Made by a program: the position numbers and the translations under genes. This document shows positions 9,840 to 64,000 of a DNA stretch of 64,000 nt, one piece after another. The notes beneath the pieces are model-generated. The model did not search any database. It was not told the origin of the DNA and saw only the letters and a program-made list of their open reading frames with translations. How positions within the stretch are numbered: position 1 is the stretch's first letter; every line of letters begins with the position of its first letter. This DNA comes from Vulcanimicrobiota bacterium. Lineage in GTDB: Bacteria; Vulcanimicrobiota; Vulcanimicrobiia; Vulcanimicrobiales; Vulcanimicrobiaceae. Where the stretch lies: the NCBI GenBank assembly GCA_963714015.1, contig OY970223.1:128001-192000 (forward strand), written 5' to 3'.

Positions 9840-11192
9840 ATGGCGCAAACCGACGCCTCGCGGCTTCGTAAGGAATCGCTCGCCTTTCCCGAGGTCCTGG
9901 CGGCCTCGGTTGCCCTGATTGGGCCGAGCATGACGCCTATTCTGATCGCGCCGTACATGTATCAGAACGCCGGGAACGCGTCGTGGCTCGCTTACGTCTT
10001 CGGCGGAATCATGCTGCTGTTCGTGGCGCTGAATCTGAATCAGTTCGCAAAGCGCTTCACCGGCGCCGGTTCGATGTACGAATACGCAGCGGAAAATCTG
10101 GGGCCCGCCGCAGGCGCGCTGGCCGGGTGGACGCTCATCTGGGCGTACGTTTTCGTCGGCGCGTCACAGTTCGGCGCGATGACGCTCTTCGTAAAGAATT
10201 TGTTGGGTTTGGGCGGATGGCAGGTTCCCGCTCTGCTCGTCTTCGGCGTCGCAACGATAGTGTGGTGGTATTTCGCGTACCGCGACATTCAACTCTCGAC
10301 GATCGTCATGCTGGCACTCGAGACGATCTCCGTTTCCATTATCTCGATCTTGGTGGTCTTCGTGCTGTTCGGTCACGGCGTCGCCGTCGATCCGGCTCAG
10401 TTGCACCTGCACGGAATCAGCGGTACGGGAATCGGTGTAGGAATCGCGTTCGCAATCTTCAGTTTCGTCGGATTCGAGAGCGCGACGGCGTTTGGTGAAG
10501 AAGCAAAACGTCCGCTGGTGAACATACCGCGCGCCGTTCTCGCAAGCGTCGTGCTGGCCAGCGTCTTCTTCATCGTCTGCATCTACGCCGAGATCGTCGG
10601 CCTTCGCCACTCGAAAACTCCGCTCGATCAGCTCTCGGCGCCGCTCTGGACGCTCGCTGACCTCTACGGAGCCGGCTATTTCAAAATACCGATAGGCATC
10701 GGCGCCATCTTCAGTTCGTTCTCCGTTGCGCTCGCGTGCGTAACGACCGGCGCTCGAATCATCCTGCCGATGGCGCGTAAGGGTCTTTTTCCGCTTGCGG
10801 CGGCGAAGATTCAGCCGCGTTTCGCCACGCCTTACGTTGCGGTTTCGGCGGTACTGGGGGCGATGCTCGTCACCGCGCTTGCGATGTATTTCGCGGGCGT
10901 GACCCCAATCAACATTTTCAACTATTGCGGTACGCTGAGCAGTTTTGGGTTCATCGTCATCTACGCGTTTATCGCCGTTTCGGCGCCTCTTTTTTTACGG
11001 CGGATCGGCGATCACAAAACGATCGACTACGTCATAGCCGCCTTGGCGCTGATTTTTTTGCTGGTGCCTGCGGTCACGCTGTTCGTCCCGGCGCCTCCGC
11101 CGCCTACGAACGCCTTTGCCTATATTTTCGTGGCGTACATGCTCGGAGGCTGGATCTATTTTACCGCCGCGGGCCGCAGACGCACCGCATAA
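9840..11192 (+). CDS. APC-family amino acid/polyamine permease
   Basis: About 12 TM helices; AGSMYEY, FSFVGFESATAFGEE, NIPRA motifs. Confidence 0.9.
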   Translation: MAQTDASRLRKESLAFPEVLAASVALIGPSMTPILIAPYMYQNAGNASWLAYVFGGIMLLFVALNLNQFAKRFTGAGSMYEYAAENLGPAAGALAGWTLIWAYVFVGASQFGAMTLFVKNLLGLGGWQVPALLVFGVATIVWWYFAYRDIQLSTIVMLALETISVSIISILVVFVLFGHGVAVDPAQLHLHGISGTGIGVGIAFAIFSFVGFESATAFGEEAKRPLVNIPRAVLASVVLASVFFIVCIYAEIVGLRHSKTPLDQLSAPLWTLADLYGAGYFKIPIGIGAIFSSFSVALACVTTGARIILPMARKGLFPLAAAKIQPRFATPYVAVSAVLGAMLVTALAMYFAGVTPINIFNYCGTLSSFGFIVIYAFIAVSAPLFLRRIGDHKTIDYVIAALALIFLLVPAVTLFVPAPPPPTNAFAYIFVAYMLGGWIYFTAAGRRRTA

Positions 11193-48231: not shown

Positions 48232-50962
48232 TCAATGGGCCTTAGCCTCGCCTAAGGCGATCGCCGCTGCGCGGCCGTGGCTAAGTGCTGCGCCCTCGTC
48301 TGAAAGCTGTGCCAGTTCCTGTTCGGGGAGCATCCCGCGCAGCGCCGCATCGTAGCGCTCGCGAATGCGTCTCGAGGCATGCTGAGAATCATACTGCATT
48401 CGTTCGAACGCGCGCTTGGTGTACGCGGCGATTCTCGCTCCGGTGACGGCGTCGCCTTCCAGCGTGCGGGCGAATCCGAGGTTCTCGATTGCGCGCACCG
48501 ACATGACGCTCTCCGCATGGACGCCCGCGTCGCGCAGAATGGCGCATCCGATTTCCGCAGCCTCTCGGGCACGGCCGGAAAAAGCCAAATAGCCGCAGAG
48601 GTCGACGCGCTGCATCAAAGCGGCCAAACGAAATTTCGTGTCTTCGTTCGGCGGGATCGTTTCCTTTAAAATGTCGATCGCGCGCGAGACGTTTCCGCGC
48701 AGAAATTCGATATCTGCGATATTCAGATCGCAAATCATGACGTTGTCCGCATCGCCGGCCTGGACTTGCGAACGCCGCGTTATCTCAAAGGCTTGCACGG
48801 CCCCCTCGTAATCACCGCACGCAGCGCAAACCAAGCCCTTCGTACTCATGAGTACCATCTGCAGCCGCGTCTCGCCGGGCGGCGCGACGGAGAACGCTTC
48901 GTCTATGGCGGCGCGCGCTTCATCGACTTTGCCGACCATTGCCGCGGCATACGCGTACGCGCGCAAACCGTTTGCAACGTACGCCGCCTTTCCGCACATG
49001 CGGGCGTACCGCAAGGCCTCCGATGCGGCGTGAAGTTGTCCCCTGGCGCCGGGCAGATACCGGACCTGCACCCACAGGCGATACTTCAGTTCGGGATGCG
49101 TATCGGGAATCAATGCGATGTAGCGGTGCAGAAACTCAATCGCTTCGTTGACGATATTCAGATGTCCCCAGACGCTCAGCACCGCGGCGGCGAGTTCTGC
49201 GCCGCGCAGCGGACTGTGCTCCAGACCGCAATTCAGAGCCGCGCGCAGGTCTTGCAGTTGCGAAAATACGGCGTCCCGGAACGGCACGCGATTGCCCGTG
49301 CGCTCCGCGCGTTCCAATTCGCCTTTGAAACGGTCGCGAAAATATTCGAGGTGCCGCTCCGCGGTTTGCTCTAGCGCTCCTGCCGCTTCGAGCTTTTCCC
49401 GGCAGTACGCGCGCGTCGATTCCAGCAGCCGATACCGCATGGGATCGGAGTCGGGCACGGTCGATACGAGCGATTTGTCGACCAGAGATTGCAGCATGTC
49501 GAGCACTTCGAGCTCGTCCGGAGGTTCGTCGCCGGCGACGGCGGCCGCGCCGTCCGCCGTAAACCCGTCTACGAAAATCGAAAGACGTCCAAATACCGAT
49601 CGCTCGGCGTCCGTCAAAAGGTCGTAGACTCCAGTCGATGAGGGCGCGCAGCGTTTGTTGCCGGGGAAGCGTCGTACGCGCGCCTCCCGTAAGCATGCGA
49701 AAGCGCTCGTCGAGCCGATCGCGCAGCTGTTGCGGGCTCAGAATTTTGACGCGGGAGGCGGCAAGCTCTATGGCGAGTGGAATGCCGTCGAGGCGGTTGC
49801 AAACGTCCGCAACGATTGCCGCATTGCTCGGCGTCAATGCGAAGCGGTTGTTCGCCGCGGCCGCGCGGTCTGCGAAGAGTTGAGACGCCTGTTCCGGCGA
49901 CAGTGAGGGGAGCCGGTACGTCGATTCGCCGGCAATTTGAAGACTCTGCCGCGACGTCGCAAGAACGCGGATATTTGGGCACTGATTGAGCAACGCCGAA
50001 ACGACGCGGCTCACGGTATCGACGAGATGTTCGCAGTTATCCAAGATCAACAGCGCTTGCCGCTCTTTGAGCGCTGCCACGAGCGCCTCGAGCGGCTCCC
50101 CACCGCCCCCTGCCGTCGATGAAATCGCCTGCGCGATTGCGGGCGCCACGTAGTCGCCGCTGGTAAGCGGGGCAAGTTCGATGAACCAAACGCCGTCCGT
50201 CGCGCGGTCGATCAGATGGGCGCCGACTTGCAGTGCCGTGCGCGTTTTGCCTACGCCGCCTGCGCCGACAACCGTCACCAGCCGGTGCGCCGCAACGAGG
50301 TCCGCAATTTGCGCCACCTCTTCATCGCGCCCGATGAACGAACTGATCTGCTGCGGCAGATTGTTGGCCAGCGCGCTCATCGATCGAAGCGGCGGAAACT
50401 CGCTCCGCAAGCCGTCTCCAACGAGTTGGTAGACGCGTTCGGGCTGCGAAAGATCCTTAAGCCGGTGCGCCCCCAAATCGAGCACTTCCGGCATTGCATC
50501 CGCGTCCCTCAGGAGATCGCTCGTCGCACCGGAAAGCAGTATTTGGCCGCCATGCGCTATCGCCAGCAATCGAGCCGCTCGATTTACCGCGATGCCGAAA
50601 AAGTCTCCATCCCGCTCTTCGCAAGCACCGGTGTGAATTGCGGCGCGAACGAGCAGTCCGTCGATGGAGCTGAAGTCTTCGGTGCTTAGCGCGCGCTGCG
50701 CGGCGGTCATCGCCGCGACGGCATCAGCGGGCCGGGAAAACGCCGAATAAAACGCGTCTCCGAGGCACTTGAAGATGTGGCCGCCGTGCTCGCTAATTGC
50801 GGCGCGCAAGATCCCATCGTGGCGGCGCAGCGCCTCCTGCATCGCCGCCGCATTGCGATCCCACCGCACGGTGCTGCCTTCGATGTCGGTGAAGGCAAAC
50901 GTCACCGCGGGCGCCGTCGCGGAAGCGGCGCGCTGCGAAAGACGTTCCGAAGACATCTGCAT
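48232..50962 (-). CDS. class III nucleotide cyclase-STAND ATPase-TPR protein (frameshift near 49620)
   Basis: FTDIEGST, LGDAF, NRAARL; GAGGVGKT; LDNCEH; DGIPLAIELAA; YRLLESTR. Confidence 0.88.
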
Positions 50963-52009: not shown

Positions 52010-52531
52010 CTAACGCCTCCGCGGTTTTGGAAAGACTTCGGAAACCTCGAACGTCAGCCAGGGAGCGGCCGCGTGCGCAAAGCGTTCGCCGGCGTGGAAC
52101 GTGCGGACGCCGTCGAGTGAATGTGCCGCGATGGCCTTGCAAGCGGGGTCGACGTCGAGCACCAGTATGGATCCGGTTGCCAAATAGCGCTCGATCTTGC
52201 GCCGAAGGTACAGCACGCGTACCGATGGAGAGCGGATTTCTATAGCGATGTCGGGGGCGAATGGCGGCTCTTCGGCTTCTTCGTCGCTTAGCCGCCCCAG
52301 CCGTTCCTTCGAAATGAACGCGATATCGGGCACGAATTCGCTCTCGCTATTATCCGCGGCCCCCACGCAGAAGCGCCACTCGGGCCCAAACTCTCCACGT
52401 TCCGCTGCGCAACGATCGAGAATGCGTAAGAGCGCCGCCTGCACCAAGGCGTGCGTCCGCCGGGGGCTCACTTTGGGATAGGGCCGTCCGTCGAGATATT
52501 CGAGTTCCGGCGGATCGTACAACGTAACCAT
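52010..52531 (-). CDS. Uma2 (DUF820) family PD-(D/E)xK endonuclease-like protein
   Basis: EYLDG...SP...H, PDIAF, APDIAIEIRSPS, KIERY. Confidence 0.88.
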   Translation of the reverse strand: MVTLYDPPELEYLDGRPYPKVSPRRTHALVQAALLRILDRCAAERGEFGPEWRFCVGAADNSESEFVPDIAFISKERLGRLSDEEAEEPPFAPDIAIEIRSPSVRVLYLRRKIERYLATGSILVLDVDPACKAIAAHSLDGVRTFHAGERFAHAAAPWLTFEVSEVFPKPRRR

Positions 52532-52534
52532 GGC

Positions 52535-52744
52535 TTACCTCCTAGACACCACGATGATGCTGTGCCCTTGGTGATCGTTCAGGAACTGGAGTCCCTCGAC
52601 GATCCAGCTGTCCAGGCCTCCGTGCGAATGTTTGGCTACTTCGCGCACGACGTGAATGCGATCTTTGAGCCAGGCCAGTTCCGAGCGAGTCGTCGGCGGC
52701 CAAATAGCAACCTCGCAATCTTCGCATTGATAGCCGTTAGCCAT
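52535..52744 (-). CDS. small CxxC/His protein (69 aa), possibly Zn-binding
   Basis: YQCEDC N-terminus and DHQGH C-terminus; GGAGG RBS for the downstream Uma2 gene lies in its 3' end. Confidence 0.55.
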   Translation of the reverse strand: MANGYQCEDCEVAIWPPTTRSELAWLKDRIHVVREVAKHSHGGLDSWIVEGLQFLNDHQGHSIIVVSRR

Positions 52745-53014
52745 GGCCCACTCTGCGCTGTCGCAAAAAGAGCGTCCTCCAATCGGACTACAATTCATGC
52801 GGCAGACGTCTCAGCGCTTCATGGTGCGAGGAGACGTATAGTTTGCCGATGCAGTTCGATACGCTCGTGAAGTGGCGCTGCCCTCAATTGCTTTTGACGT
52901 AGTTCCAATTCGCCGCGAGCCGTATTCGTTCTACGAAGACTTTCCAGGCTGCCCGCAGCCGCCGCTGATTTCCCTTCCCCCAGAAAGTCGACGCATTGGC
53001 GAAGCGTTCGCTCG

Positions 53015-54707
53015 GTGTCAAAGACACGCCGCTCTCCCGCATGGTTCTCCAGCTCGGCGTTCAACGCAACGGGCCTTTCGGCGTTCCTGCGCAGTGCTTC
53101 AGCGCGGCTCCCGGAGCTGTTGAACAGCGTGGATATTCGGCGGTCGGCCGGGGACATTCAAAACGCCGCAACGGTAGCGATCGAGGATGACCCGGCCTGC
53201 GCCGATGCGTTTGTCCGAAGCGCAAGTCTTCTCAAAGCGGCTTGGTCGATGTATGCGGACATCTTCAGCGGCCGCTTTGCACCCGACGAACTCAACGGAG
53301 TGCCGCTCGAGATGCGGCAGTATCCGAACGTGTTCGGAACGACGTCCTGCTACGAGAACGGCGCGATCCGCCGGCGCAAGAGCGCCGCCGTTTCTCGAGT
53401 TTTGGTTCTTGCGCGCGGACAAACGTTCGTGCTCGACTTCGGCCGGGATTGGGCCAATCTGGCAATCGATGATATTGCGAGCGCCTTCAAGAAAACGTGG
53501 AGCGAATCGTACGCATCGGATGCAGCCAATCGCGGAGCGAGCCTTGGTCTAGTATCGGCGACGAACGATAAACTGCAGCGATCGCTATTCGAAACGACCC
53601 TCCGTCATGCGACGAATCGCCAATCGCTCGCGGAGCTCCAGAATACCTTCTTGACGATTTGTCTAGATTTGGATGCGGAGCCGCGATCCTACGCTGAAGC
53701 GCTGCAGATTGCTCATGGAGGAAACACGCCGAATCGCTGGTTCAACGCAAGCACGCAAATTGTGGTTTTCGGTAACGCGCGGTCTTGCGGGATTTTCAAT
53801 TTCTCCGCTTGCATCGACGGCAACGTGATGATGCGCACCGCAAGCGAGCTGCGCGCCCGTGCGGCTCGGTACACTTCCCAGGCGGAGCATCGTGCGGAGC
53901 GGATGGGGGAGTCCCCGCCGAAAGCGCGGCGGCTCCGCTGGCTCATAGATGCGCAGGTTATCAAACGGGCGCAATCCGATCTCGCACAACTCGCCGACAG
54001 CGCGCAGTTCACTTTTGAACTTCCAGGCTATGGAAGCGCGCGATTCCATTCCCGAGGATTGGAACCGGTTTCAGCCTTCGTCATGGCGGTCAATATTGCG
54101 GCGTCCCGGATACTCCGCCGAGCACCCATCGTGTCGGAGTTTCTTACGCAGTCGCGATACCGGTACATGGGCGTCCGGTCAATCGTAACGACCACTCCTG
54201 AACATTTACGTTTTTTCGAGGCATTAGAATTACCCCAGCGAGATGTTCGTCATGCGCGGGCCGCTTTCGAAAACGCCTGCGCGAAACGGGCGCAGGCCTG
54301 CCGCAATGCTCGCTCCGTCTTGGCAATTCTTCCCGCGATCGATCTCTTCCGGAGCACCCTAGACACGCGCGGCCGAAAGACGTTCAATCGCAAGCTCTAC
54401 GGGTGCGTCGCCTTGCTGAGACGGCTGGGCCTTTCGGTGCCGCCGACCGACGTCACCCTCTCCTCTCCGGCGCTCGCGCCGGGAGTCCGATTCGTGGGAC
54501 GTTCGGGTGTGCGAACGCGCAGCACCGGCGGATTCCTGATGCATTATCACCTCTTAGAAGATCGGCTGGTGGTCACCGTTATGCCCGGCATCGAATGCCG
54601 CCATTCCAACGAGACTGATGGTTGCAGAAATTCGCCGGGCTCTGGACGATCTGCTGAACCTTTTTACTAATAGTAATTGCTCCTCCGCCGAAGGTGCGGA
54701 CGGCTGA
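53015..54707 (+). CDS. choline/carnitine O-acyltransferase-like protein (frameshift near 54615; start uncertain)
   Basis: RSASLL, PLEMRQYPNVFGTT, FLTICLD, NRWF.ASTQIVV..N, IDG; family-like C-terminal helix EIRRALDDLLNLF in another frame ending at 54707. Confidence 0.75.
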
Positions 54708-54777
54708 ATCGCAAACACAGATGGTTGCCGGCTCATTACGCACGCCGGCTTGCGTACTAAAACGGAGGCGCCATCTC

Positions 54778-54948
54778 ATGGAGTACGCCGCACCGAACGT
54801 CCTGACGTCTTACCTCGTTCCGGAGCTCTCTCGGGATGCAAGGGGCTTTGCCAGCGATCCCGTCTTCTGCGATCGTGACGAGCGCGCAGACTCGGGCCAT
54901 TATCCGGACTGCACGTATACCTTCGTGCCTCGCGGCGGGTACGACTAG
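54778..54948 (+). CDS. putative RiPP precursor peptide A1 (56 aa)
   Basis: MEYAAPNVLTSYLVPELSRDARGFASDPVFCDRDERADSGHYPDCTYTFVPRGGYD; ACGGAGG RBS; paralog of A2. Confidence 0.85.
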   Translation: MEYAAPNVLTSYLVPELSRDARGFASDPVFCDRDERADSGHYPDCTYTFVPRGGYD

Positions 54949-55064
54949 CCCGCCGCTTTTGCGGCATCTCGCCAAACGGCCCATTAATCCGACCGCAGAC
55001 GGCTCAGCGCTCTATAGTACGACGGCACGTATGGCCGTCCGTTGCCCTCGGATACGCTCATTTT

Positions 55065-56301
55065 ATGTGGAGCACTTCGCCTGCGGGGCGCGCCGCTTTG
55101 GCATGGCTGCTCACGCCGCTTTCGATTGAAGAGTTTCAATCGCAGTACTACGAGCGTGCGCCGATGCACGTTGCCCGCGACCGAGCTGGATATTACCAGC
55201 GCGTCTTCGATCTGCTCGAAGTGGAACGCATTCTCTACGCCAGCGAGCTTCACAAAGCCGATATCCGCCTGGTCAAAGACGGCGTGCCGGTGCGGCCGGA
55301 GTCATACCTGGTTCCGAAGCCGGTCTGCAAAGAGAACGAGCTCGAGCCGTATACCGATCGGGTCGACGCCGATCGGATCAGTGCGCTGTTTGCGAGCGGG
55401 TGCTCTATCGTCATGCACGACGTGCGCTCGCTTTCGGCTCCCGCGGCAAATTTCTGCCGTGAGTTGGAGATGCTCTTTCATCACCGCGTCTCGCCCAACA
55501 TGTATCTTACGCCCCCCGGTAATCAGGGCTTCGACGCGCACTACGACACGCACGATACGGCGATCGTGCAGATCGAGGGAACCAAGCACTGGCGCGTCTA
55601 CGAGTCGGCGTTTCCGCTTCCGCTGGACGATCAAACGTTCGATAAGCGCCTACACACTCCGGGAAAAGTTTGCATCGAGGCAGACCTGCGCCCCGGCGAT
55701 TTCCTCTACATCCCTCGCGGTTTTTTGCACGAGGCCAAGGCGAACGAGGACCTTTCGCTTCATTTGACGCTGGGTTTATATCCGCGTCGCTGGATCCAGG
55801 TGCTAAAGAAAGCGCTGGACGATGCCGGCGAGGCAGCGGAGAACGCGCTGCTGCGAGAGACGGCCACAGCCGAGAGCGTTCCGGCGCTGCACGCACTGCT
55901 GCAAAGCATCTTGGCGCATAGCGCGCTCTGCGCTGCCGAAGTCGCGATCGAAAACCAATTCGTGCGAGAACGGCGAAACGGGCTGGACGGCCAGATGAAT
56001 CAGATTTCCCGCTTGCGGGAGCTGGGCGAGGAATCGCTGGTTGCGCTGCGGCCGAACGTGCTGTACGAGCTGACCGAGAGCGAGAAAACCGCGCGGTTGG
56101 CGTTCTCCGGAAAGAATTTGGTGTTCGGAGCCGGCGCAAGCGGCATCATCCGGGAACTCGAAGGCGCGGCTTCGCGCGCGGGCCGGCGATCTGCTCAAGC
56201 ACGATCCCAAAGCGCTGGCGATCCTGCGTAAGCTGATTCAGGAAGGCTTTGCCGTTCAACTTCCTCCCGCGCAGCAGCGCGCAGCGCGAACGGTAGCCTA
56301 A
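55065..56301 (+). CDS. JmjC/cupin-4 Fe(II)/2OG oxygenase 1, NO66/RoxA-like (frameshift near 56180)
   Basis: YLTPPGNQGF.AHYDTHD..QIEG.KHW and PGDFLYIPRG..HEA (HxD...H); C-terminus HDPKALAILRKLIQEGFAVQL continues in another frame to TAA at 56301. Confidence 0.92.
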
Positions 56302-56322
56302 CTAAACACCGGCACGCTCGCC

Positions 56323-56394
56323 GAAACGTCCGTTCTGCACGTGCCGCGCAACCACCCGGGATAATACAGCCGGTATTGCAGTTTAGCCGCCGTC
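56323..56394 (+). pseudogene. relic of a further JmjC paralog N-terminus
   Basis: ETSVLHVPRNHPG*YSRYCSLAAV aligns with paralog segments ERKVLYLPRNDAQFFQGDFSLAEV and ERAPFHISRNESGRYDRYFSLQEM. Confidence 0.5.
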
Positions 56395-56606
56395 CGACCT
56401 TAGCGCCGGCTGCACCACATAACGCATAGTCCGATCGGCCCTCACGCCGAACATTTCACGTGTTTCTCAGGTCTTTCTCAGCAGCGGACGCCCCAGCGCA
56501 AGATGGTGCGCAGGGCGTTTGTGGCTCTCTCCACCGGTGCGTTATGCTCTGGTTGTGCCGGTGTATGCGCAACACCGGCGTGCTTACAAACGGAGGCACT
56601 ATTCTT

Positions 56607-56783
56607 ATGGAGTACACCGCACCCAAACTCCTGACGTCGTATGCGGTTCCAGATCTTTACAGCGATGCCAAAGGCTTTGCCAGCGACCCGCTGTATTGCG
56701 ACCCGAACCGGAGTGGCGATCTGGGTAACTACCCGAATTGCAACCCAAGCGCCAACATCGTTTGGCACCAACCGTACGACTAA
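56607..56783 (+). CDS. putative RiPP precursor peptide A2 (58 aa)
   Basis: MEYTAPKLLTSYAVPDLYSDAKGFASDPLYCDPNRSGDLGNYPNCNPSANIVWHQPYD; ACGGAGG RBS; 27/45 identical to A1 without gaps (hand count). Confidence 0.85.
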   Translation: MEYTAPKLLTSYAVPDLYSDAKGFASDPLYCDPNRSGDLGNYPNCNPSANIVWHQPYD

Positions 56784-56812
56784 CGGATTACCGGCGGCTG
56801 GCGCCGCCATCG

Positions 56813-56850
56813 ACGAAGACCCGGCAAGTTCGTGCCGGGTCTTCGTTTTT
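56813..56850 (+). terminator. intrinsic terminator/stabilising hairpin after precursor A2
   Basis: Perfect 14-bp stem ACGAAGACCCGGCA/TGCCGGGTCTTCGT followed by TTTT. Confidence 0.85.
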
Positions 56851-56964
56851 GCATGGGCTATCCGGCCTATGTGAGTTAAGTGTTCCAGGTCACGCCTACG
56901 TGAGGCCGGCGCCCGTTGGCGGCTCGCTCTTCGCGGACTACGCTAGAGGAAAAGGAGCCGACTG

Positions 56965-58191
56965 ATGGCCGCTGTTTCGCGCGATCGCACGACCCTGGCG
57001 TATCTGCTTGCGCCTCTTTCGATCGACGAATTCCTCAATGGGTACGCGCAGAGATCGCCTTTGCACGTCCGACGGGACGTCGAAGCGTATTATGAGCGAT
57101 ACTTCAACCTGAGCGAGTTCGAACGCGTCATATTCGGCTGTAAAATCACGACCGATGATCTGCGGATGATCAAGGACGGAACGCCGGTGCGTGAGGAGTC
57201 CTACATCTGGGAAGCTCCGAAAAAGTATACACCGCCTACGGTAACGTATCGCAGCAGCGTCGTGGACGCAGACCGCTTGGCCGGGCAGTTCGCGCACGGC
57301 TGCACGGTCAACATGAACAACATCGAACGCTACTCGCCTGGCGCGGCGTCGCTCGCCCGCGATCTTTCCGCGTTCTTTCAGAGCGGGGTTGGCGCAAATG
57401 TCTATCTGACGCCGCCGGGAAACCAAGGGTTCGGCGCCCACTACGACACGCACGACACAATGATCTTACAGATCGAGGGATCCAAGCGCTGGCGAGTATA
57501 CGAGCCGACGATCGAGTTGCCGCTCGACCATCAAATTTATCATCGCATCGGACATACGGTGCCCGGTCCATTGCTCTTCGAAACCGATTTGATGCCCGGC
57601 GATTTGCTCTACTTGCCGCGCGGCTTCTTTCACGAAGGGAAAGCCAACGAGGAACTCTCACTCCACGTCACATACAGCATCGCTCAGCCGCGCTGGGTGC
57701 AAGTTGCAATCGAAGCCCTCATGCGAGCCGCGGAATCGGACGTCCGCCTGCGCCGCTTCGCGGTCGATAGTCCTTCCGACGTCCCGGCCGCCCTCGCCGC
57801 GGCGTTGACCCCGGAGTTGCTGCAAGCCGCGCTGGACCGGTTGCGCGCTGAATTCCATGCCGTGTACCGCAGCGAGCTGGACGGCCAGCTGCGCCAGGTT
57901 GCGGCCTTGAACGATCTCTCGGAGCATTCGTTTATCTCCAAACGGCCTAGCGTTCTCTATGACGTCGAGGAAACTCCGAACGGCGTGCGCCTGACCTTCG
58001 CGGGCAAGACGGTCGGTCTTCCAGCCTCTGCAAAAGCCGTTGTCAACGAGCTCGACAGCGTTTCGGCCGTTGCCGTTTCCTCGCTGGTTGCGCACGATCC
58101 TAAGGCGCTCAACATCGTCCGGCGCCTCATTCAGGAAGGCTTTGCCGTTCAATTGCGGCCCGAGCGCAACCACAGCGCATCGGTTGCCTGA
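56965..58191 (+). CDS. JmjC/cupin-4 oxygenase 2
   Basis: NVYLTPPGNQGFGAHYDTHD, PGDLLYLPRGFFHEG; AAGGAG RBS. Confidence 0.93.
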   Translation: MAAVSRDRTTLAYLLAPLSIDEFLNGYAQRSPLHVRRDVEAYYERYFNLSEFERVIFGCKITTDDLRMIKDGTPVREESYIWEAPKKYTPPTVTYRSSVVDADRLAGQFAHGCTVNMNNIERYSPGAASLARDLSAFFQSGVGANVYLTPPGNQGFGAHYDTHDTMILQIEGSKRWRVYEPTIELPLDHQIYHRIGHTVPGPLLFETDLMPGDLLYLPRGFFHEGKANEELSLHVTYSIAQPRWVQVAIEALMRAAESDVRLRRFAVDSPSDVPAALAAALTPELLQAALDRLRAEFHAVYRSELDGQLRQVAALNDLSEHSFISKRPSVLYDVEETPNGVRLTFAGKTVGLPASAKAVVNELDSVSAVAVSSLVAHDPKALNIVRRLIQEGFAVQLRPERNHSASVA

Positions 58192-58213
58192 GCGGCCATG
58201 AACTGCGCATAAA

Positions 58214-59176
58214 ATGATCCCCCAATCAGCCGTGCCGATCCGTCTTATCCGCCGCGAAGGAGAAATCGGCGTCGATTGGCTCCGGCTCACTGCGTCGAAC
58301 ATGTCCGAACCGTTCTTCTTTCAGACCGTAAAACGGCTCAGGGAAGCCGGAGAACGCTACGTTTTCACCGGAGCCGACGAGTTGACGGCCTTTGCCGAAC
58401 GCTCGCACGACGTGAAGACCGCCTTTATTTTTCACGTTTCGCACTGCGGGTCGACGCTTCTCGCAAATGCGTTGAAAACCGTGGCAAATGCAGTTGTGAT
58501 CTCGGAACCGGCGTTGATGACGCCTGGTCAGCTTTTGTCGCCCTCGGCACGAAAGGCGTTCGGCCGATCTACGCTCGAGGCGCTCATCCTGGGCGCCGTC
58601 AACGCTTACGCTCTGAACGGGCCGCCAAAGCGTTACGTGTTTTTTAAGTTCATGGACTTGGCCAGCCTTGCGCTACCGACGCTGCGCCGCATGTTTCCGG
58701 CCGTCCCGTTTGTGTTCATCTATCGCGAACCCAGCCACGTCATTGCCTCGAACCTTGAGGAGGTGCCGGAAGATCTGCGTCTGAGCGCTGCGCCCGACAT
58801 TAAAGCCTTGCTCGGGAAGGATCAGGCTTGGGAGCCTTCCGCGACGGCCTGGTGGTCAGCAATATACGAGGCCGAGTGTCTGCGGGCGGCCGTAGCGCCG
58901 AACACGGTTATGGTAGACTACTGTGATCTGAACGATACCCGCGCAGTTCAGTTGATGTGCCACCTGGGAATGAACAGTGGCGACATCGACAAGGCTGCAG
59001 TCTCGACAACATTCGGGCGCTACTCGAAGGCCTCGCCAACCCAGAACATGACGTTCTCGCCGGCAGCGGACTACGAGCGCCGCCGCACTACGGCAGAACG
59101 AATGGATCCTGGAGAGTATCTCCCCGCAAGCGCAGCTTACCGGCGTCTGCGCGCGATGAAAGCGCGAATCGCATAG
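58214..59176 (+). CDS. sulfotransferase-fold (P-loop) protein
   Basis: FIFHVSHCGSTLL (5'-PSB-like), VISEP, FVFIYREP.HVIAS (3'-PB-like). Confidence 0.75.
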   Translation: MIPQSAVPIRLIRREGEIGVDWLRLTASNMSEPFFFQTVKRLREAGERYVFTGADELTAFAERSHDVKTAFIFHVSHCGSTLLANALKTVANAVVISEPALMTPGQLLSPSARKAFGRSTLEALILGAVNAYALNGPPKRYVFFKFMDLASLALPTLRRMFPAVPFVFIYREPSHVIASNLEEVPEDLRLSAAPDIKALLGKDQAWEPSATAWWSAIYEAECLRAAVAPNTVMVDYCDLNDTRAVQLMCHLGMNSGDIDKAAVSTTFGRYSKASPTQNMTFSPAADYERRRTTAERMDPGEYLPASAAYRRLRAMKARIA

Positions 59177-59183
59177 GAGCGTT

Positions 59184-60416
59184 ATGTGGAACTTTAAGTA
59201 TGACCAAGTGCTGCGCCGTTTCCTGACCCCGGTTCCGCTTGAACGTTTCCTGTCCGAATACTACGAGCGCAAAGTTCTGTACCTTCCGCGAAATGACGCG
59301 CAGTTTTTTCAGGGCGATTTCAGTCTGGCCGAGGTCGATCGATTCCTTCACAGCGTTGAGATTTCGGCCTCTTTTCTGCATGTCCTAAAAGACGGCGTCG
59401 GGACACCCGTCGCGGAGTATTCGCGCAACGTTCCGCGTTCCGATCCCGTTACGCATACCAGCGGCCAGGCGGCGATACTGGACCCGGGTCTCGTCGGCGA
59501 CTTTTTTGCCCGCGGCCATACGCTGCACTTCGATCATATACGTTCGTATAGTCCACAAGCAGCAGCGCTCTGCCGCGAGCTCGAGGGTTTCTTCGGCCAT
59601 CGCATCCGATGCACCGCATTCTTGACGCCGTCGCACAGTAAGGGATTTCGACTTCACTACGACGTGTACGATACATTCATTCTGCAGATTCACGGCTCCA
59701 AACGCTGGCGCGTGTCCGAAACGATGTTTCCGCTGCCGCTCGTGAGCCAGTTTTACACGCCTGACATGCAACCCGGCCCGTTGCTTCTGGATACCGTGCT
59801 GCGCCCTGGGGACTTCTTGTATATGCCGCGCGGCACGTTTCACGAAGCGGCAGCGGACGACGAAGCCTCGCTGCACTTGTCGATCGTGCCGGACCCCCTG
59901 CGATGGGAAGCGGTATTTCACCGCGTGCTGTCGGAGGTTGCGAAGGAAGAACTCCCGCTCCGTAGCAGCACGGCGACTCCGCTGAACGAGGAGGAGCTGG
60001 AAGTCATCGGAAGGCGCGTCTTTTCACGGGTGAGATCCGAAACCGCCAAGGACGAGCTGGAACTCGATTTTTACACGACGCGGCGAAACGACGGCAGCGG
60101 GCAGCTGCAGCAGATCTTGGATGCCGATCGGATCACGCCGCTTACGCAGATCTCCATTCGCGCCGGGTCGCTGTACAGCCTAAGCGAATCGGACCTGACC
60201 GCAACGGTGCGCTTTTCGGCAAAAGTCCTTCAGCTGCCGCGGAGTGCAGCGGAAATCGTCCGAGCTCTCGAATTGAACGGCCCGATGCCCGTGGCGGCGT
60301 TTCTCAAGTACGACGGAAACGCGCTTGCAATCGCGCGCACGTTGCTCAAGAGCGGCTTCTTAATGATGTCCGCGGAGCCGGAGAAGACCGGTGCAGTGCG
60401 CGTCCGATTGGGCTAA
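59184..60416 (+). CDS. JmjC/cupin-4 oxygenase 3 (most divergent)
   Basis: AFLTPSHSKGFRLHYDVYD..LQIHGSKRW, PGDFLYMPRGTFHEA. Confidence 0.92.
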   Translation: MWNFKYDQVLRRFLTPVPLERFLSEYYERKVLYLPRNDAQFFQGDFSLAEVDRFLHSVEISASFLHVLKDGVGTPVAEYSRNVPRSDPVTHTSGQAAILDPGLVGDFFARGHTLHFDHIRSYSPQAAALCRELEGFFGHRIRCTAFLTPSHSKGFRLHYDVYDTFILQIHGSKRWRVSETMFPLPLVSQFYTPDMQPGPLLLDTVLRPGDFLYMPRGTFHEAAADDEASLHLSIVPDPLRWEAVFHRVLSEVAKEELPLRSSTATPLNEEELEVIGRRVFSRVRSETAKDELELDFYTTRRNDGSGQLQQILDADRITPLTQISIRAGSLYSLSESDLTATVRFSAKVLQLPRSAAEIVRALELNGPMPVAAFLKYDGNALAIARTLLKSGFLMMSAEPEKTGAVRVRLG

Positions 60417-61153
60417 AGAGTACGCCGTCGCTTTAGAGGCGCGAGCAAATCCCTGGCCCCGCGCGCTGCAGCCCGGCTCCCTGGGAGCGCTCCTTTCTCC
60501 GGACGAGCGTGAGCCGGACTGCCATCGCTGGCTAGCGCATCGTATCTCCGAGGCGAGGTCGCAGCAGGCATCCCTTGTCGGCCGCGCGCAGGACGCGGTT
60601 CGCATGGAGTTCACGTTGCGCTATTCCTGGTCGATACCGACGCGTGAAGCACTCGATGCAATCGCACGCGCTCGCCGGGTGGAGTCTTAGAGGTCGGCGC
60701 CGGAAACGGCTACTGGTCGTTTCTGCTGCGCTCCCGCGGCATGCCGTTCGTTGCGGTCGACCGTTTTCCGGTTGAGAGCGGTTCAAACCCGGCCTGGAAG
60801 CTCCGATCCGCAGCCCGCTCGCGCCCAATCTCACGCGCCCTGGACGGCCGATGGAGCCGGTAAACGGAAAAGAGATCGCGACAGTACGGCAGCCGAGCCG
60901 GCGCTGCTCATCTGCTGGCTCTATTCGGCGCGCACGCTTCAAACGTATGAAGGCGGCACAATCGTGTTCGTCGGAGAGCCTCGCGGCCGTAACGATTTTC
61001 TACGAATTCTACGACGAACTGCTCGGCGAACTGGAGCGTCGCGGGGCGAGTGAGCGCGATTCCGCGCTTCTTCAACTCCCACGATTCACTTTGGATTTTC
61101 CGCCGAAGAAGCGGCTCCGGACGGCCCGGCCCGATCGGCCCATTCCGGCATGA
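60391..61153 (+). CDS. class I SAM-dependent methyltransferase, multiply frameshifted (possible pseudogene)
   Basis: YSWSIPTREAL, VLEVGAGNGYWSFLL..RG....AVD and LLICW...YEGGTIVFVGE read from different frames; boundaries approximate. Confidence 0.7.
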
Positions 61154-61200
61154 TGCGCCGGTTTGATGGCTCCCGAAGGTTTCCGCGCTAAGCTGCCGCT

Positions 61201-62421
61201 ATGTGGAGCTCATCGGCAGCCGAACGGGCCGTTTTTTCTTGGCTGGTCGCGCCTCATTCCATCGACGATTTCGCCGGGCATTACGAGCGCGCGCCGTTTC
61301 ACATATCGCGCAACGAGTCCGGACGCTACGATCGATATTTCAGTTTGCAGGAGATGGAGCGCGTGCTCTTCGGGTGCGAGCTGAACGTCAAGGATCTGCA
61401 GATCATCAAAGACGGCACCGCCGCTCGCCCCGAGACCTACACTCGCTCGCATTCCGAACCGAAACATCCGCTCGATCAGGCCGCCGGTGAAATCGTGAAC
61501 CCCGACCGCGCGAGCGCCCTCTTCGCAAGCGGGTGCACGGTCGTGCTCGACAACGTCAACAAATATTCCGCGTCGATGGCGTCGCTGTGCCGCGATCTGG
61601 AGATGTTTTTCGGCTGCCACGTCAACCCGAACGTCTACATGACGCCGCCGGGAAATCAAGGCTTCGCGGTTCATTACGACACGCATGACGCGCTGATCGT
61701 CCAAATCCGCGGATCGAAGCACTGGCGCGTGTACGAGTCCGCATTCCGGCTGCCGCTCGAGCATCAATACTGGGACAAGAAACTCTACCCCGCCGGCAAT
61801 ATGGTGCTCGATATGGAGATGCGGCCCGGGGACTTCCTTTACATTCCGCGCGGCTGCCTGCACGAGGCGAAGGCCAATGACGAGCTTTCGCTGCACGTAA
61901 CCATCGGACTCTATCCGACCCTTTGGACGCACGTCGCCGCGCAAGCGCTGATGAGGGCGGCGGAGGCGCTTCCATCGCTGCGGCAGGCGGCCGACGAAGA
62001 CGCAGCGGAGGCAATCTCGGCCGAGCTCGCGCAGGTCCTTGCGCCCGCGCGTCTGACCGAAGCTCTGCGCGCAGCCCGGCGAAGCTGGCGCAACGATCGC
62101 GACAACGGCCTCGAAGGACAACTCGAACAACTCGCCGCGCTGCCGCATCTGAACGAAGCGTCGATCGTGCGCAGGCGTCCGAACCTCTCTTACGAGTGGA
62201 TGGAGACCGAGCGCGGCGTCACGCTCACGTTTTCGGGAAAAACGGTGATACTCTCCAAGTCCGCGGCCGTCGTCATTCGCAAACTCGAAGCGGCCTCCGA
62301 ACTGGACGTCGCCGCACTCTGCGAACAAGACGAAAGTGCGCTCAAAGCGGTGCGCAAGCTGATTCAGGAAGGGTTCGCGATTCAGGAGCTCGGCGGCGAA
62401 CGCCGCTATAGAATCGCGTAG
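61201..62421 (+). CDS. JmjC/cupin-4 oxygenase 4
   Basis: NVYMTPPGNQGFAVHYDTHD, PGDFLYIPRGCLHEA, C-terminal RKLIQEGFA. Confidence 0.93.
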   Translation: MWSSSAAERAVFSWLVAPHSIDDFAGHYERAPFHISRNESGRYDRYFSLQEMERVLFGCELNVKDLQIIKDGTAARPETYTRSHSEPKHPLDQAAGEIVNPDRASALFASGCTVVLDNVNKYSASMASLCRDLEMFFGCHVNPNVYMTPPGNQGFAVHYDTHDALIVQIRGSKHWRVYESAFRLPLEHQYWDKKLYPAGNMVLDMEMRPGDFLYIPRGCLHEAKANDELSLHVTIGLYPTLWTHVAAQALMRAAEALPSLRQAADEDAAEAISAELAQVLAPARLTEALRAARRSWRNDRDNGLEGQLEQLAALPHLNEASIVRRRPNLSYEWMETERGVTLTFSGKTVILSKSAAVVIRKLEAASELDVAALCEQDESALKAVRKLIQEGFAIQELGGERRYRIA

Positions 62422-63668
62422 ATCGTGTGACCGTCGGCGATCAAGATCGTATTTCCTAACAAAACGGGCGGCGAAACGGAAAACGGTTCATTGAACGGCT
62501 GCTCGCGCAACACGCTTCCCGTTGCGGCGTTCAATGTGTAGAACATTCCCGCCGTATCGCCGACGAATACACGCCCTCCGGCGGTCACGGGGCTCATCTT
62601 AATCGGAGCGATCGACGTGAAGCGCCAGCGCACGGCTCCCGATCGCGCGTCGAAGGCGATCAACTCGTCGCTCGTGGGCATTGCTTGAAAATACATGCCC
62701 GCGGCATAGGTGCCGGCGATGGCGCGCTCCGACGATCCGACTTCGGTGTAGGGACCGGTGCGCGGACTGCGGTAGGTCCAGCGAACTGCGCCCGTATGCG
62801 CATCCAGCGCGGTCACGATCGTGCGCCCTTCCTTGCGGCTCGACCAGTTGCTCGCGTCGTTTTCGACGTTGCTTACGAAAATCGATCCCGCGCCGTAGGC
62901 CGGCGAGCAATCCGAATTGCCGAAGGGCGCGCTCCACAGCTGTTTTCCCGATTCCGGGTCGAGCGCATACGTGCGGCAATGATAAGGCCACGTGTAGTCG
63001 CATGCGGAAACGTAGCCCACTCCGCCGGCCAGCGTCGAAGAGGCCATGGTAGCGGGACCGACCAGCGCGTCTTTCCAGCGCAGGTTGCCGGATGCTGCGT
63101 CCAAACCGTAGGCGTGAAAGTCACCGTTCGCAAAAAAGATCGTGCCGCCGTCGATCGCCGGAGAAGGCATGTCTTCGCCGACAGTCGGGAAGGCCCACCG
63201 CTGCGCGCCGGTGCGCGCGTCGAACGCGATCAAACGATCGCCGCCGGGCCGCCCCCAGACGAGATTTCCGCTGTGCTCCGGATCGGTCGAGAGTTTCGGA
63301 TTGGGGATTCGCGCATTCGTCCCGGAACCGACGTACACGATGCCGTTTGCCAGAACCGGCGTCGACATCAATACGTCGTTTGTATGAGTGCGCCACAGCA
63401 CTTTGCCGTTCTTGGCATTAATTGCCAAAAGCTCGTTCGCAAAGGTGTCGACGAAAAGCGTCGTGCCCGCCACCGCGAATCCGCCGTTGACCTGCTGACC
63501 GACGTCGAGCTTCCAATGCGTGCTGAAACCGTCCAGAGGCACGACGGCGTTGTGATCGGGCGTGCGTTGAAACATCGCCCAAGAGTCGGATGGCGACACG
63601 TTCGCGGTCGCGCCATGACTGCACGCGCAGAGAACGGCGAGCAGAGCAAGTACTGAAAGCCTTACCAT
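62406..63668 (-). CDS. PQQ-like (BamB-type) beta-propeller lipoprotein
   Basis: Lipobox-like LCAC after a signal peptide; repeated A.DA.TG...W blades. Confidence 0.85.
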   Translation of the reverse strand: MVRLSVLALLAVLCACSHGATANVSPSDSWAMFQRTPDHNAVVPLDGFSTHWKLDVGQQVNGGFAVAGTTLFVDTFANELLAINAKNGKVLWRTHTNDVLMSTPVLANGIVYVGSGTNARIPNPKLSTDPEHSGNLVWGRPGGDRLIAFDARTGAQRWAFPTVGEDMPSPAIDGGTIFFANGDFHAYGLDAASGNLRWKDALVGPATMASSTLAGGVGYVSACDYTWPYHCRTYALDPESGKQLWSAPFGNSDCSPAYGAGSIFVSNVENDASNWSSRKEGRTIVTALDAHTGAVRWTYRSPRTGPYTEVGSSERAIAGTYAAGMYFQAMPTSDELIAFDARSGAVRWRFTSIAPIKMSPVTAGGRVFVGDTAGMFYTLNAATGSVLREQPFNEPFSVSPPVLLGNTILIADGHTIYAIL

Positions 63669-63779
63669 ACTCGAAGGTTCTTTTTGCAGCCCGATACTCC
63701 CCGCATGCAAACGTCTCATTCTGCCGTAAGCCATTACGCCCATGAAGTCACGACGCCGGGGCTTTACTATCAAAAGAGC

Positions 63780-64000
63780 ATGCGCATCGCCTTCGTCTGT
63801 CCTTTGCTTCCGCCGCATTATAACGGATGCGGAGACGCAACGGATCGGCTTGTGCGCGAGTTCCGGGAACGCGGCGACGAAACGCTCGTGCTTACCGACG
63901 ACGTCGCCGGCGTACTGCATCCCTTTCCGATGAAGAGCGTCGGCGGGTGGGGCGTGCGCTCGCTCTTCGAAACGAAACGCGCGGTGGCGGCCTTCCGGCC
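63780..64000 (+). CDS. GT-B (GT4-like) glycosyltransferase, N-terminal part, runs off the window
   Basis: Hand translation MRIAFVCPLLPPHYNGCGDATDRLVREFRERGDETLVLT...AVAAFR; open to the window end. Confidence 0.7.
   Translation, partial: MRIAFVCPLLPPHYNGCGDATDRLVREFRERGDETLVLTDDVAGVLHPFPMKSVGGWGVRSLFETKRAVAAFR

Follow-up and report, generated by a model that had tools for sequence, protein, structure and literature searches.

A probable RiPP-like peptide-modification cluster with two precursor peptides and four JmjC oxygenases in an uncultured soil bacterium of Candidatus Eremiobacterota

Introduction

What do four paralogous JmjC oxygenases act upon when their genes are interspersed with two small open reading frames (ORFs) coding for closely related peptides? 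The question is raised by a locus at ~52.9-62.4 kb of the window (the whole stretch of 64,000 nucleotides analysed here), from the genome of an uncultured soil bacterium of Candidatus (Ca.) Eremiobacterota. An earlier reading made from the letters alone, called below the sequence-only reading, proposed that the peptides are precursors of a new RiPP class (RiPPs are peptides made by the ribosome and modified after translation). Comparison with related loci indicates that this is probably a RiPP-like peptide-modification cluster operating by the mechanism set out below, and that its peptides most likely belong to an undescribed family of enzyme-modified peptides. The gene content, the linkage between peptide and JmjC genes, the conservation of the leader, the enzyme fold and the intact metal site were all observed in that comparison.

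Gene organization of the cluster

The cluster is a single co-oriented gene run on the + strand. The nine genes that the sequence-only reading had placed there were all found, in that orientation and at those positions. Its features are:

53015..54670, + strand, carnitine/choline-acyltransferase homologue (PF00755; Pfam E 3.4e-36)
54778..54948, + strand, precursor peptide A1, 56 amino acids (aa), leader and two-Cys core
55065..56301 (ORF as called to 56231), + strand, JmjC1, ROX-type Fe(II)/2-oxoglutarate (2OG) oxygenase (PF08007 E 1.1e-25)
56607..56783, + strand, precursor peptide A2, 58 aa, same leader as A1
56812..56852, + strand, terminator-like hairpin between A2 and JmjC2, 15-bp stem followed by UUUUU
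56965..58191, + strand, JmjC2 (PF08007 E 2e-27)
58214..59176, + strand, sulfotransferase-like protein, 320 aa, closest to protein-tyrosine sulfotransferases
59184..60416, + strand, JmjC3, the most divergent paralogue (PF08007 E 3.1e-24)
60391..61153, + strand, S-adenosylmethionine (SAM)-methyltransferase-like gene, in three frames in the assembly (three-frame translation)
61201..62421, + strand, JmjC4, ROX-type oxygenase, 406 aa (PF08007 E 3.7e-28)

The host genome is a single 3.56-Mb contig in which the four PF08007 genes of the cluster are the only PF08007 genes. Named relatives assign it to Ca. Eremiobacterota/Vulcanimicrobiota. The hairpin between A2 and JmjC2 folds with -42.5 kcal/mol over 77 nt (z -3.9; 1 of 200 shuffled sequences was equally stable) and was not listed by a simple terminator scan. 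A strong hairpin followed by a U-tract after A2 would fit the synthesis of precursor transcript in excess. A scan of positions 52400-62600 for sigma-70 promoters returned 0 sites, a scan that is uninformative for this phylum. The region was in none of the RNA runs searched and in a single DNA run with a 0.07 share of its words, which is silent on expression.

Pfam searches of the cluster genes gave no match to the lanthipeptide synthetase, YcaO, radical SAM, lasso cyclase or ATP-grasp families, so that the absence of these enzymes, as read from the sequence alone, was borne out for the cluster's own genes. No NCBIfam model matches A1, A2 or any enzyme of the cluster.

The precursor peptides and their family

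Both peptide ORFs are preceded by a GGAGG box 9-10 nt 5' of the ATG (9 nt in the case of A1). A1 and A2 share 54% identity, concentrated in residues 1-32. The strong ribosome-binding site (RBS) and the conserved N-terminal half first noted for both peptides are thus confirmed. The A1 leader covers residues 1-26, with Y3-x-x-P6 and a G-F-A-S motif, and its core carries two Cys 13 residues apart and three Tyr. The A2 core also has two Cys 13 residues apart and ends with P-Y-D. The Tyr residues of the two peptides adjoin Asp.

A2 has an ortholog, 83% identical, in metagenome contig L017. Third codon positions account for 25 of the 40 differences between the two genes; in the leader 8 codon changes are synonymous and 1 is non-synonymous, and in the core there are 9 of each. 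This pattern points to translated ORFs made up of a leader and a variable core, and supports the small ORFs as genuine, conserved genes.

With A2 as the query, a word-indexed search turned up just one outside cluster, and a first scan of genome contigs with the peptide found none; the family emerged by profile search. When 1.84 billion representatives were searched exhaustively with the profile, 54 matches were obtained, 52 of which are peptides of 30-72 aa with a common leader of consensus M-x-Y-x-x-P-x-[ILV]-[ILV]-x-S-Y-x-[VA]-x-[DE]-L-[YLV]-x-x-[AG]-x-G-F-x-S. In the 16 aligned peptides and in the 52 representatives a conserved stretch (residues 1-26) is followed by a variable core, which is the leader/core arrangement of RiPP precursors. 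Y-x-x-P is invariant in the aligned set. The cores of the 52 representatives have a median length of 18.5 residues and are composed of 16% Gly, 16% Asp, 10% Cys, 8% Pro and 7% Asn. Exactly two Cys, spaced by 3-19 residues, are found in 44 of these cores, so that the two Cys seen in A1 and A2 are the rule of the family; 7 of the 52, as well as the peptides of loci L013 and L014, have one Cys or none. Asp or Asn is present in 49 cores and Tyr in 15.

Two further peptide matches (G109 and G078; E ~0.008) were rejected as members of the family, one being a match to the core only and the other containing 2 stops. A 97-aa representative (P0047) carries a different peptide twice in tandem, Y-E-T-P-Q-[VI]-V-A-S-Y-S-I-D-E-L-I-E-E-A-A-V-C-T-G-Y-D-G. 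The repeat has the Y-x-x-P-x-[ILV]-[ILV]-x-S-Y start in common with the family but not the G-F-x-S end, and it is perhaps a sister family.

Linkage of peptide and JmjC genes across genomes

A profile built from six peptide sequences matched 10 of the 401 genomes of the phylum (a count that includes G254 and two doubtful weak matches) and one metagenome contig, L017; relatives of the peptide were confined to Ca. Eremiobacterota in the profile search. The flanks of the loci were fetched and all their ORFs were scored. A JmjC gene is found directly downstream of the peptide (within ~200 bp), on the same strand, in 11 of the 15 loci outside the window, or in 10 of 13 when G254 is left out. A pairing kept in so many other loci makes the arrangement more than chance. 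Linkage of peptide homologues to JmjC genes in other genomes was the test by which the sequence-only reading proposed to be judged, and it was passed. A short precursor next to a modifying enzyme, with a linkage conserved across genomes, is the arrangement typical of RiPP systems. The peptide has no JmjC gene within 8 kb in L037, L040 and L044, and one further locus lies at a contig edge. JmjC is the sole partner kept across loci, which supports the earlier proposal that the oxygenases are the main modifying enzymes.

Contig L017 encodes two peptides and four JmjC proteins, as does the window, in the order divergent peptide, three JmjC genes, A2 ortholog, fourth JmjC gene and a TauE-family gene. 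This last gene (L017:9373-9852) codes for a TauE/SafE-family (sulfite-exporter family) membrane protein, directly 3' of the last JmjC gene, and the contig ends there.

PF08007 proteins are encoded by 90 of the 401 genomes of the phylum (including G254, G241 and G360). The other 311 have no PF08007 protein at E <= 1e-5, and the enzyme is therefore not a housekeeping need. The peptide was found in 0 of 20 other PF08007 loci sampled from the phylum and, among the best 80 JmjC loci of all species genomes, in 3, all from Eremiobacteraeota/Vulcanimicrobiota. A quick maximum-likelihood tree separated 17 peptide-linked JmjC proteins from 21 other PF08007 proteins of the phylum by one branch (SH-like approximate likelihood ratio test (SH-aLRT) 96).

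Polysaccharide or cell-envelope genes flank the peptides in L034, L036, L043, L037, L044, L013 and L014. They code for Wzy_C, Wzz, group-1 glycosyltransferases, epimerases, Poly_export, Bac_transf and a divergent polysaccharide deacetylase.

The JmjC oxygenases and leader recognition

All four JmjC proteins score above the PF08007 cut-off (85-98 bits versus 22). The AlphaFold2 model of JmjC2 (predicted local distance difference test (pLDDT) 87) has human NO66 (4ccn; E 4e-26, TM 0.71) as its best match in the PDB and matches NO66, MINA53 and YcfD over its full length, that is, over the JmjC, dimerisation and C-terminal winged-helix domains. All 16 sequences compared have H159, D161, H223 and K174 (JmjC2 numbering). 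We take them, after NO66 structures, to be the 2-His-1-carboxylate metal site and the Lys that binds 2OG, and by this measure the JmjC enzymes look active. In the tree JmjC3, which is 31% identical to JmjC2, falls among the "second" JmjC genes of other loci with several JmjC genes.

When the C-terminal domain is modelled on its own (pLDDT 85), it has a beta3-alpha3 order, with four strands followed by three helices. Its best structural matches are the C-terminal domains of MINA53 and NO66 (Z 10.7 and 8.3). PqqD (5sxy, Z 7.8) comes next, and then the RiPP recognition element (RRE) of PbtF (8t19, 7.2), TbiB1 (5v1u, 6.7) and the lasso B1 protein (6jx3, 6.5), the last being the top Foldseek match of the domain. 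The RRE regions of MibB, TbtB, NisB, LynD, MccB, McbB and SuiB are matched as well, the whole run of RREs covering Z 4.8-7.8. The Y-x-x-P of the leader is described in PMC12710340 as a characterised recognition sequence of lasso-peptide RREs. A PqqD protein (PF05402, E 1.8e-10) is encoded directly upstream of the peptide in L042. Leader-guided modification is the most economical reading of an RRE-like C-terminal domain in the models, a Y-x-x-P in the leader and PqqD beside peptides of the family. The context argues for the adjacent peptide, rather than a ribosomal protein, as the JmjC substrate. A complex prediction for JmjC2 and A2, both given as alignments, had a score of 0.00, which counts neither way.

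The same genome carries a second RiPP-like cluster with the same leader family and without a JmjC gene, ~8-15 kb past the end of the window (L044:8270-14665, which is G000:C1:200270-206665), whose synteny is repeated in L037 (G300). On the minus strand it begins with a LuxR-type response regulator, an NTP_transf_5 protein (PF14907), an ABC ATPase and an ABC-2 permease. Two tandem peptides of the leader family follow (L044:11050-11151 and 10907-11050), the latter with a C-F-E-x-G-P-x-N-P-x-C core. The only PqqD gene of the genome lies directly downstream of the peptide, and the cluster ends with a weak HprK-related-kinase-like ORF, an S24-like peptidase and polysaccharide export genes.

Sulfotransferase, acyltransferase and methyltransferase

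The sulfotransferase-like protein itself matches Pfam Sulfotransfer_3 (PF13469) only below the cut-off (E 0.0065, 17.2 bits; cut-off 27), and phmmer against PDB sequences returned nothing. PF13469 is matched by 17 of 20 of its relatives (E <= 0.01), and a profile built from the 20 matches TPST1 (5wrj) with E 3.3e-8 and TPST2 with E 8e-4. Two motifs are conserved, F-H-V-S-H-C-G-S-T and R-D-P-x-E-V-x-x-S. The invariant S-x-C-G-S-T aligns to P-R-S-G-T-T of TPST1 and the second motif to R-D-G-R-A-S-V-H-S, as expected of sites for 3'-phosphoadenosine 5'-phosphosulfate (PAPS). They are presumably the 5'-PSB and 3'-PB (PAPS-binding) motifs. The original sulfotransferase call was upheld by these results, and the matches to the TPST1 and TPST2 sequences point to tyrosine.

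Only two of the fetched loci, the window and L039, have sulfotransferases. In L039 two tandem homologues (41-42% identical) are encoded upstream of a peptide, which ends with D-G-D-Y, and of its JmjC gene. From the TPST-like profile, the L039 homologues and the Tyr residues that adjoin Asp, tyrosine sulfation can reasonably be proposed for the window and L039, where it would be an optional decoration since no other fetched locus has the enzyme. The peptide-JmjC pair of this locus is separated from the tandem sulfotransferases by ORFs of 389 and 223 aa (L039:8303-10191, - strand, G300), neither of which has a Pfam or NCBIfam match.

The acyltransferase homologue is well above the PF00755 cut-off (125 bits versus 22.3). 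When it is aligned to choline acetyltransferase (2fy2), the E-H-S motif of the latter faces F-S-A and its His aligns to Ser264. In 8 members of the subfamily, the homologue and its 7 relatives, the position of the catalytic His (E-H-S-x-x-D-G) is occupied by S, C, D, N, T or P and never by His. Acylation by the known mechanism is for this reason probably not to be expected, and the acylation step put forward in the sequence-only reading is not supported. The methyltransferase-like gene that it listed is present, but not as a single open frame: its pieces are spread over three frames, with a motif-I-like LEVGAGNGYW in the second, and none of them matches a Pfam family above its cut-off. By tblastn, no fetched locus has a counterpart of the acyltransferase, of the methyltransferase pieces or of the FkbM methyltransferase encoded upstream. 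The acyltransferase and the methyltransferase are local extras at best.

Comparison with known systems

The closest structural relatives of the cluster enzymes are the ribosomal oxygenases (ROX), represented by human NO66 and MINA53 and by the YcfD/RoxA proteins of E. coli and Rhodothermus (PF08007). Both groups have the same JmjC barrel, helical dimerisation region and C-terminal beta3-alpha3 "winged-helix" domain, and the H-x-D...H metal site is kept together with the Lys 13 residues after the Asp. The cluster enzymes are only 16-22% identical to ROX, however, and differ from them by the presence here of four paralogues in one cluster, by the pairing of members of the clade with a small peptide gene and by the frequent lack, in the peptide cores, of Arg or His, the residues hydroxylated by ROX.

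That JmjC enzymes tailor RiPPs and that JmjC proteins are fused to RRE-like domains is already in print, and the statement of the sequence-only reading that no class of this make-up was described was too strong. PF08007/JmjC hydroxylases are reported for PhaI in phaeornamide (PMC8784127) and for BipG/BpmG and PbsQ in biphenomycins (PMC12707348, PMC12257519); CzlI of curacozole is presented as a JmjC-subfamily enzyme in PMC11575548, the passage concerned naming no Pfam family for it. As in the cluster described here, these are Fe/2OG JmjC-type enzymes working on a leader-bearing ribosomal peptide. Yet the accounts of PhaI, BipG, PbsQ and CzlI present them as accessory steps on ornithine (Orn)/Lys or Phe in clusters with a lanthionine synthetase, MNIO/radical SAM enzymes or YcaO, whereas JmjC is the sole conserved partner of the present family. 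No Orn-forming arginase was seen by Pfam among the genes of the cluster, unlike in the PF08007 RiPP pathways compared.

RRE-like beta3-alpha3 folds fused to PF08007 domains, with bacterial homologues in RiPP-like contexts, are mentioned in PMC12710340 (mSystems 2025). The domain model obtained here matches RREs structurally, and the passages concerned of that paper give no precursor family or product. The literature searched, which included few subscription papers, describes neither a class with JmjC as sole conserved maturase nor this leader family. A 2025 article by Xia et al. (JACS) is said, from its title and at second hand, to deal with macrocyclisation by alpha-ketoglutarate (aKG) dioxygenases in RiPPs, and may or may not concern this enzyme family. 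It is cited in PMC12710340 beside JmjC homologues in RiPP-like contexts.

The family resembles lasso peptides and their PqqD-type RRE (B1) in the Y-x-x-P near the N-terminus of the leader and in the PqqD beside family peptides in L042 and in the second cluster, but its cores do not have the lasso pattern and neither A1 nor A2 is matched by an NCBIfam lasso model. A lasso peptide reading was rejected: the Asn-synthetase-like cyclase and transglutaminase-like B2 protease families are unmatched in a scan that covered the cluster genes. RaxX is a tyrosine-sulfated ribosomal peptide and RaxST is its sulfotransferase. The present cluster can be likened to this pair by description: the gene of a small ribosomal peptide has a TPST-like sulfotransferase gene nearby.

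Proposed mechanism and its alternatives

The cluster would work as follows. The ribosomally made precursors A1 and A2 carry the conserved 26-residue leader, which would dock on the modifying enzymes, most likely at the beta3-alpha3 domain that forms the C-terminus of the oxygenases; a separate PqqD protein may be the docking site in some relatives. The four paralogous ROX-type JmjC Fe(II)/2OG oxygenases would then oxidise side chains of the short variable core, rich in Asp, Asn, Gly and Pro and with two Cys. If one reaction is to be named, C-3 hydroxylation of Asp/Asn is our best guess, and the two Cys would close a disulfide loop. It is favoured because the near-universal core residues are Asp/Asn, Gly and two Cys. 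The TPST-related sulfotransferase probably O-sulfates the acid-flanked Tyr of A1 and A2, the SAM methyltransferase may add a methyl group and the acyltransferase homologue, devoid of the catalytic His, probably does not acylate. In this scheme we infer leader binding, the residues modified, the type of oxidation, sulfation and the export and function of the product.

Several points weigh against the scheme. We know of no ROX or PF08007 RiPP enzyme that acts on Asp or Asn. The known ROX hydroxylate Arg or His, and the targets of PhaI, BipG and PbsQ in the cited passages are Orn and Lys. Arg, Lys or His is present in just 26 of the 52 cores. Although the domain model resembles RREs, Z values of 6.5-7.8 are in the middling range of the tool, and profile comparison (hhalign) of the JmjC C-terminal domain with the L042 PqqD revealed no sequence similarity (probability 0.1). 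The C-terminal domain is, besides, the ordinary winged-helix domain of all ROX enzymes. The peptides without JmjC in L037, L040 and L044 mean that the leader is not exclusive to JmjC enzymes, and neighbourhoods vary widely between loci. Neither a leader peptidase nor an exporter was found by Pfam among the cluster genes or recurs in the other JmjC-linked loci; both are also missing from many RiPP clusters. Finally, three of the nine genes are frameshifted in the assembly.

The main alternative retains the same RiPP-like architecture, with JmjC enzymes that catalyse an oxidative cross-link or rearrangement, involving the two Cys or an aromatic residue, and so form a macrocycle. The two Cys are the most constant feature of the cores, aKG enzymes are summarised in PMC13185096 as forming aromatic-aliphatic cross-links, and four paralogues for two peptides suggest more than one kind of step. 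This alternative is nonetheless unlikely. Most cores have few or no aromatic residues, the family includes the above cores with one Cys or none, and the characterised ROX and PF08007 RiPP enzymes named in the cited passages are all hydroxylases.

A second alternative is that the peptides are small intracellular proteins, hydroxylated in an O2- and Fe-dependent manner for sensing, regulation or metal/calcium binding, possibly in connection with the envelope or exopolysaccharide. JmjC enzymes such as FIH are oxygen sensors. The polysaccharide genes that flank peptides in seven loci, the LuxR-type regulators nearby in L017, L037 and L044, the lack of a protease or transporter conserved with the peptide-JmjC pair and the similarity of acidic Asp/Gly-rich cores to metal-binding loops would suit such proteins. 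We nevertheless give this possibility a rather low probability: a conserved N-terminus with a hypervariable C-terminus is a precursor pattern, a PqqD chaperone stands beside members of the family, the second cluster of the genome combines this leader with an ABC exporter and an S24-type peptidase, and an expansion of paralogues alongside a sulfotransferase is what one typically sees in secondary metabolism.

If the frameshifts were real, the cluster would be a decaying remnant in a strain that makes no product. At least six frame changes occur in the acyltransferase, JmjC1 and methyltransferase genes within 9.4 kb, and marker completeness is just 89.6% despite a one-contig genome. The N-terminal ~40 residues of the acyltransferase lie in another frame (ORF 52872-53123), as does its C-terminal helix after ~54590; the N- and C-termini of its relatives match these other frames of the window. 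The breaks in the methyltransferase lie at ~60680-61060. One frameshift near 56170 interrupts JmjC1, whose conserved C-terminal domain runs on in another frame to 56301, and an intact ortholog of the gene is present at L017:5119-6357. One soil run yielded independent short contigs 90-99% alike to the window, which cover 16 of 30 bins. A related contig lacks one base at 53055 and a related short-read contig is shorter by 9 bases spread over 8 places in 60837-61112; when these differences are applied, the methyltransferase segment becomes an open frame of 89 codons. In all nine differences it is the window that has the extra base, which looks like consensus error, and the frameshifts are therefore probably for the most part errors of this kind. 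Both peptides, JmjC2, JmjC3, JmjC4 and the sulfotransferase are intact, and we consider decay improbable.

It is very improbable that the small ORFs are regulatory leader ORFs for JmjC genes that encode ordinary ribosomal-protein oxygenases: although the enzymes share their fold and domain order with YcfD, NO66 and MINA53, the A2-JmjC2 hairpin could act as an attenuator and the genome has no other PF08007 gene to serve the ribosome, the family is absent from most genomes of the phylum, four paralogues share one cluster, the peptides also occur with PqqD and other enzymes in loci without JmjC, the peptide-linked JmjC proteins form their own clade, and such ORFs seldom keep a 26-residue sequence and two Cys across genera.

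Significance

The modification of dedicated precursor peptides by the oxygenases would add a ribosomal peptide family whose sole conserved maturase is a JmjC oxygenase, a type of enzyme so far known for ribosomal-protein hydroxylation. Ca. Eremiobacterota has few cultured members and, to our knowledge, almost no known chemistry. The loci provide defined substrate-enzyme pairs, one peptide and one enzyme in the simplest of them (such as L014 and L043), that could show ROX-like action outside the ribosome and allow a test of whether the ROX winged helix binds leaders. They might also provide a second bacterial case of tyrosine-sulfated ribosomal peptides. The value of the finding is limited by earlier published hints of JmjC-RRE-like proteins in RiPP-like contexts and by a chemistry that is here inferred.

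It is possible, though doubtful, that the family constitutes a RiPP class of its own, with ROX-type JmjC enzymes as sole class-defining maturases, poly-hydroxylated or cross-linked two-Cys cores, a Y-x-x-P leader bound by the winged-helix domain and, in the present cluster, sulfotyrosine. If so, the C-terminal domain would serve to recognise peptides in the entire ribosomal-oxygenase family, the Asp/Gly-rich ORFs that precede related JmjC genes in Actinomycetota, Bacteroidota and cyanobacteria (see below) would be substrates of one widespread, unrecognised peptide-hydroxylation system, and the products might be hydroxy-aspartate metal or calcium binders.

Neighbouring genes and distant JmjC loci

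The cluster is bounded on its left by a divergent Uma2 gene and the FkbM methyltransferase gene, and on its right by a convergent BamB/PQQ-like lipoprotein gene. A gene for a BamB/PQQ-like beta-propeller is found near the peptide-JmjC pair in four loci: the window (62406-63920, - strand, with a lipoprotein-like signal), L038:579-2021, L013:12829-15108 and L014:10801-11769. This nearness is possibly due to chance, as such genes may be common in the phylum. Elsewhere in the window, at 48232-50962 (- strand), ORFs of 461 aa (TPR) and 608 aa (cyclase domain and STAND NTPase) overlap by ~480 bases in different frames, and may be another assembly frameshift within one large signalling gene.

Small ORFs are also encoded on the same strand 5' of distant JmjC homologues (25-36% identical) from Actinomycetota and Bacteroidota, in L050, L052, L057, L060, L072, L098, L100, L101, L106, L107 and L111, with the JmjC match at ~3001. 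Cultured hosts of such ORFs include Niabella hirudinis, Marmoricola endophyticus and Subtercola vilae (L060, L100 and L098). They are extremely rich in Asp, Gly and Ala and often repetitive, as in repeats of E-G-P-A-D-G-G-A-N-P-N-G-H-D-G-G-A-D-G-S-A. These Asp/Gly-rich ORFs fit an acidic-residue target, which proves nothing. Of the 16 small ORFs that precede JmjC genes in other phyla, 14 match no NCBIfam model; the exceptions lie at L070:2554-2706 and L093:2746-2913. A cyanobacterial ORF upstream of a JmjC homologue matches the NCBIfam "lasso_cyano" precursor model (E 6e-10), and an Acidobacteriota ORF in the same position has the look of a typical double-Gly leader and contains C-C-T motifs.

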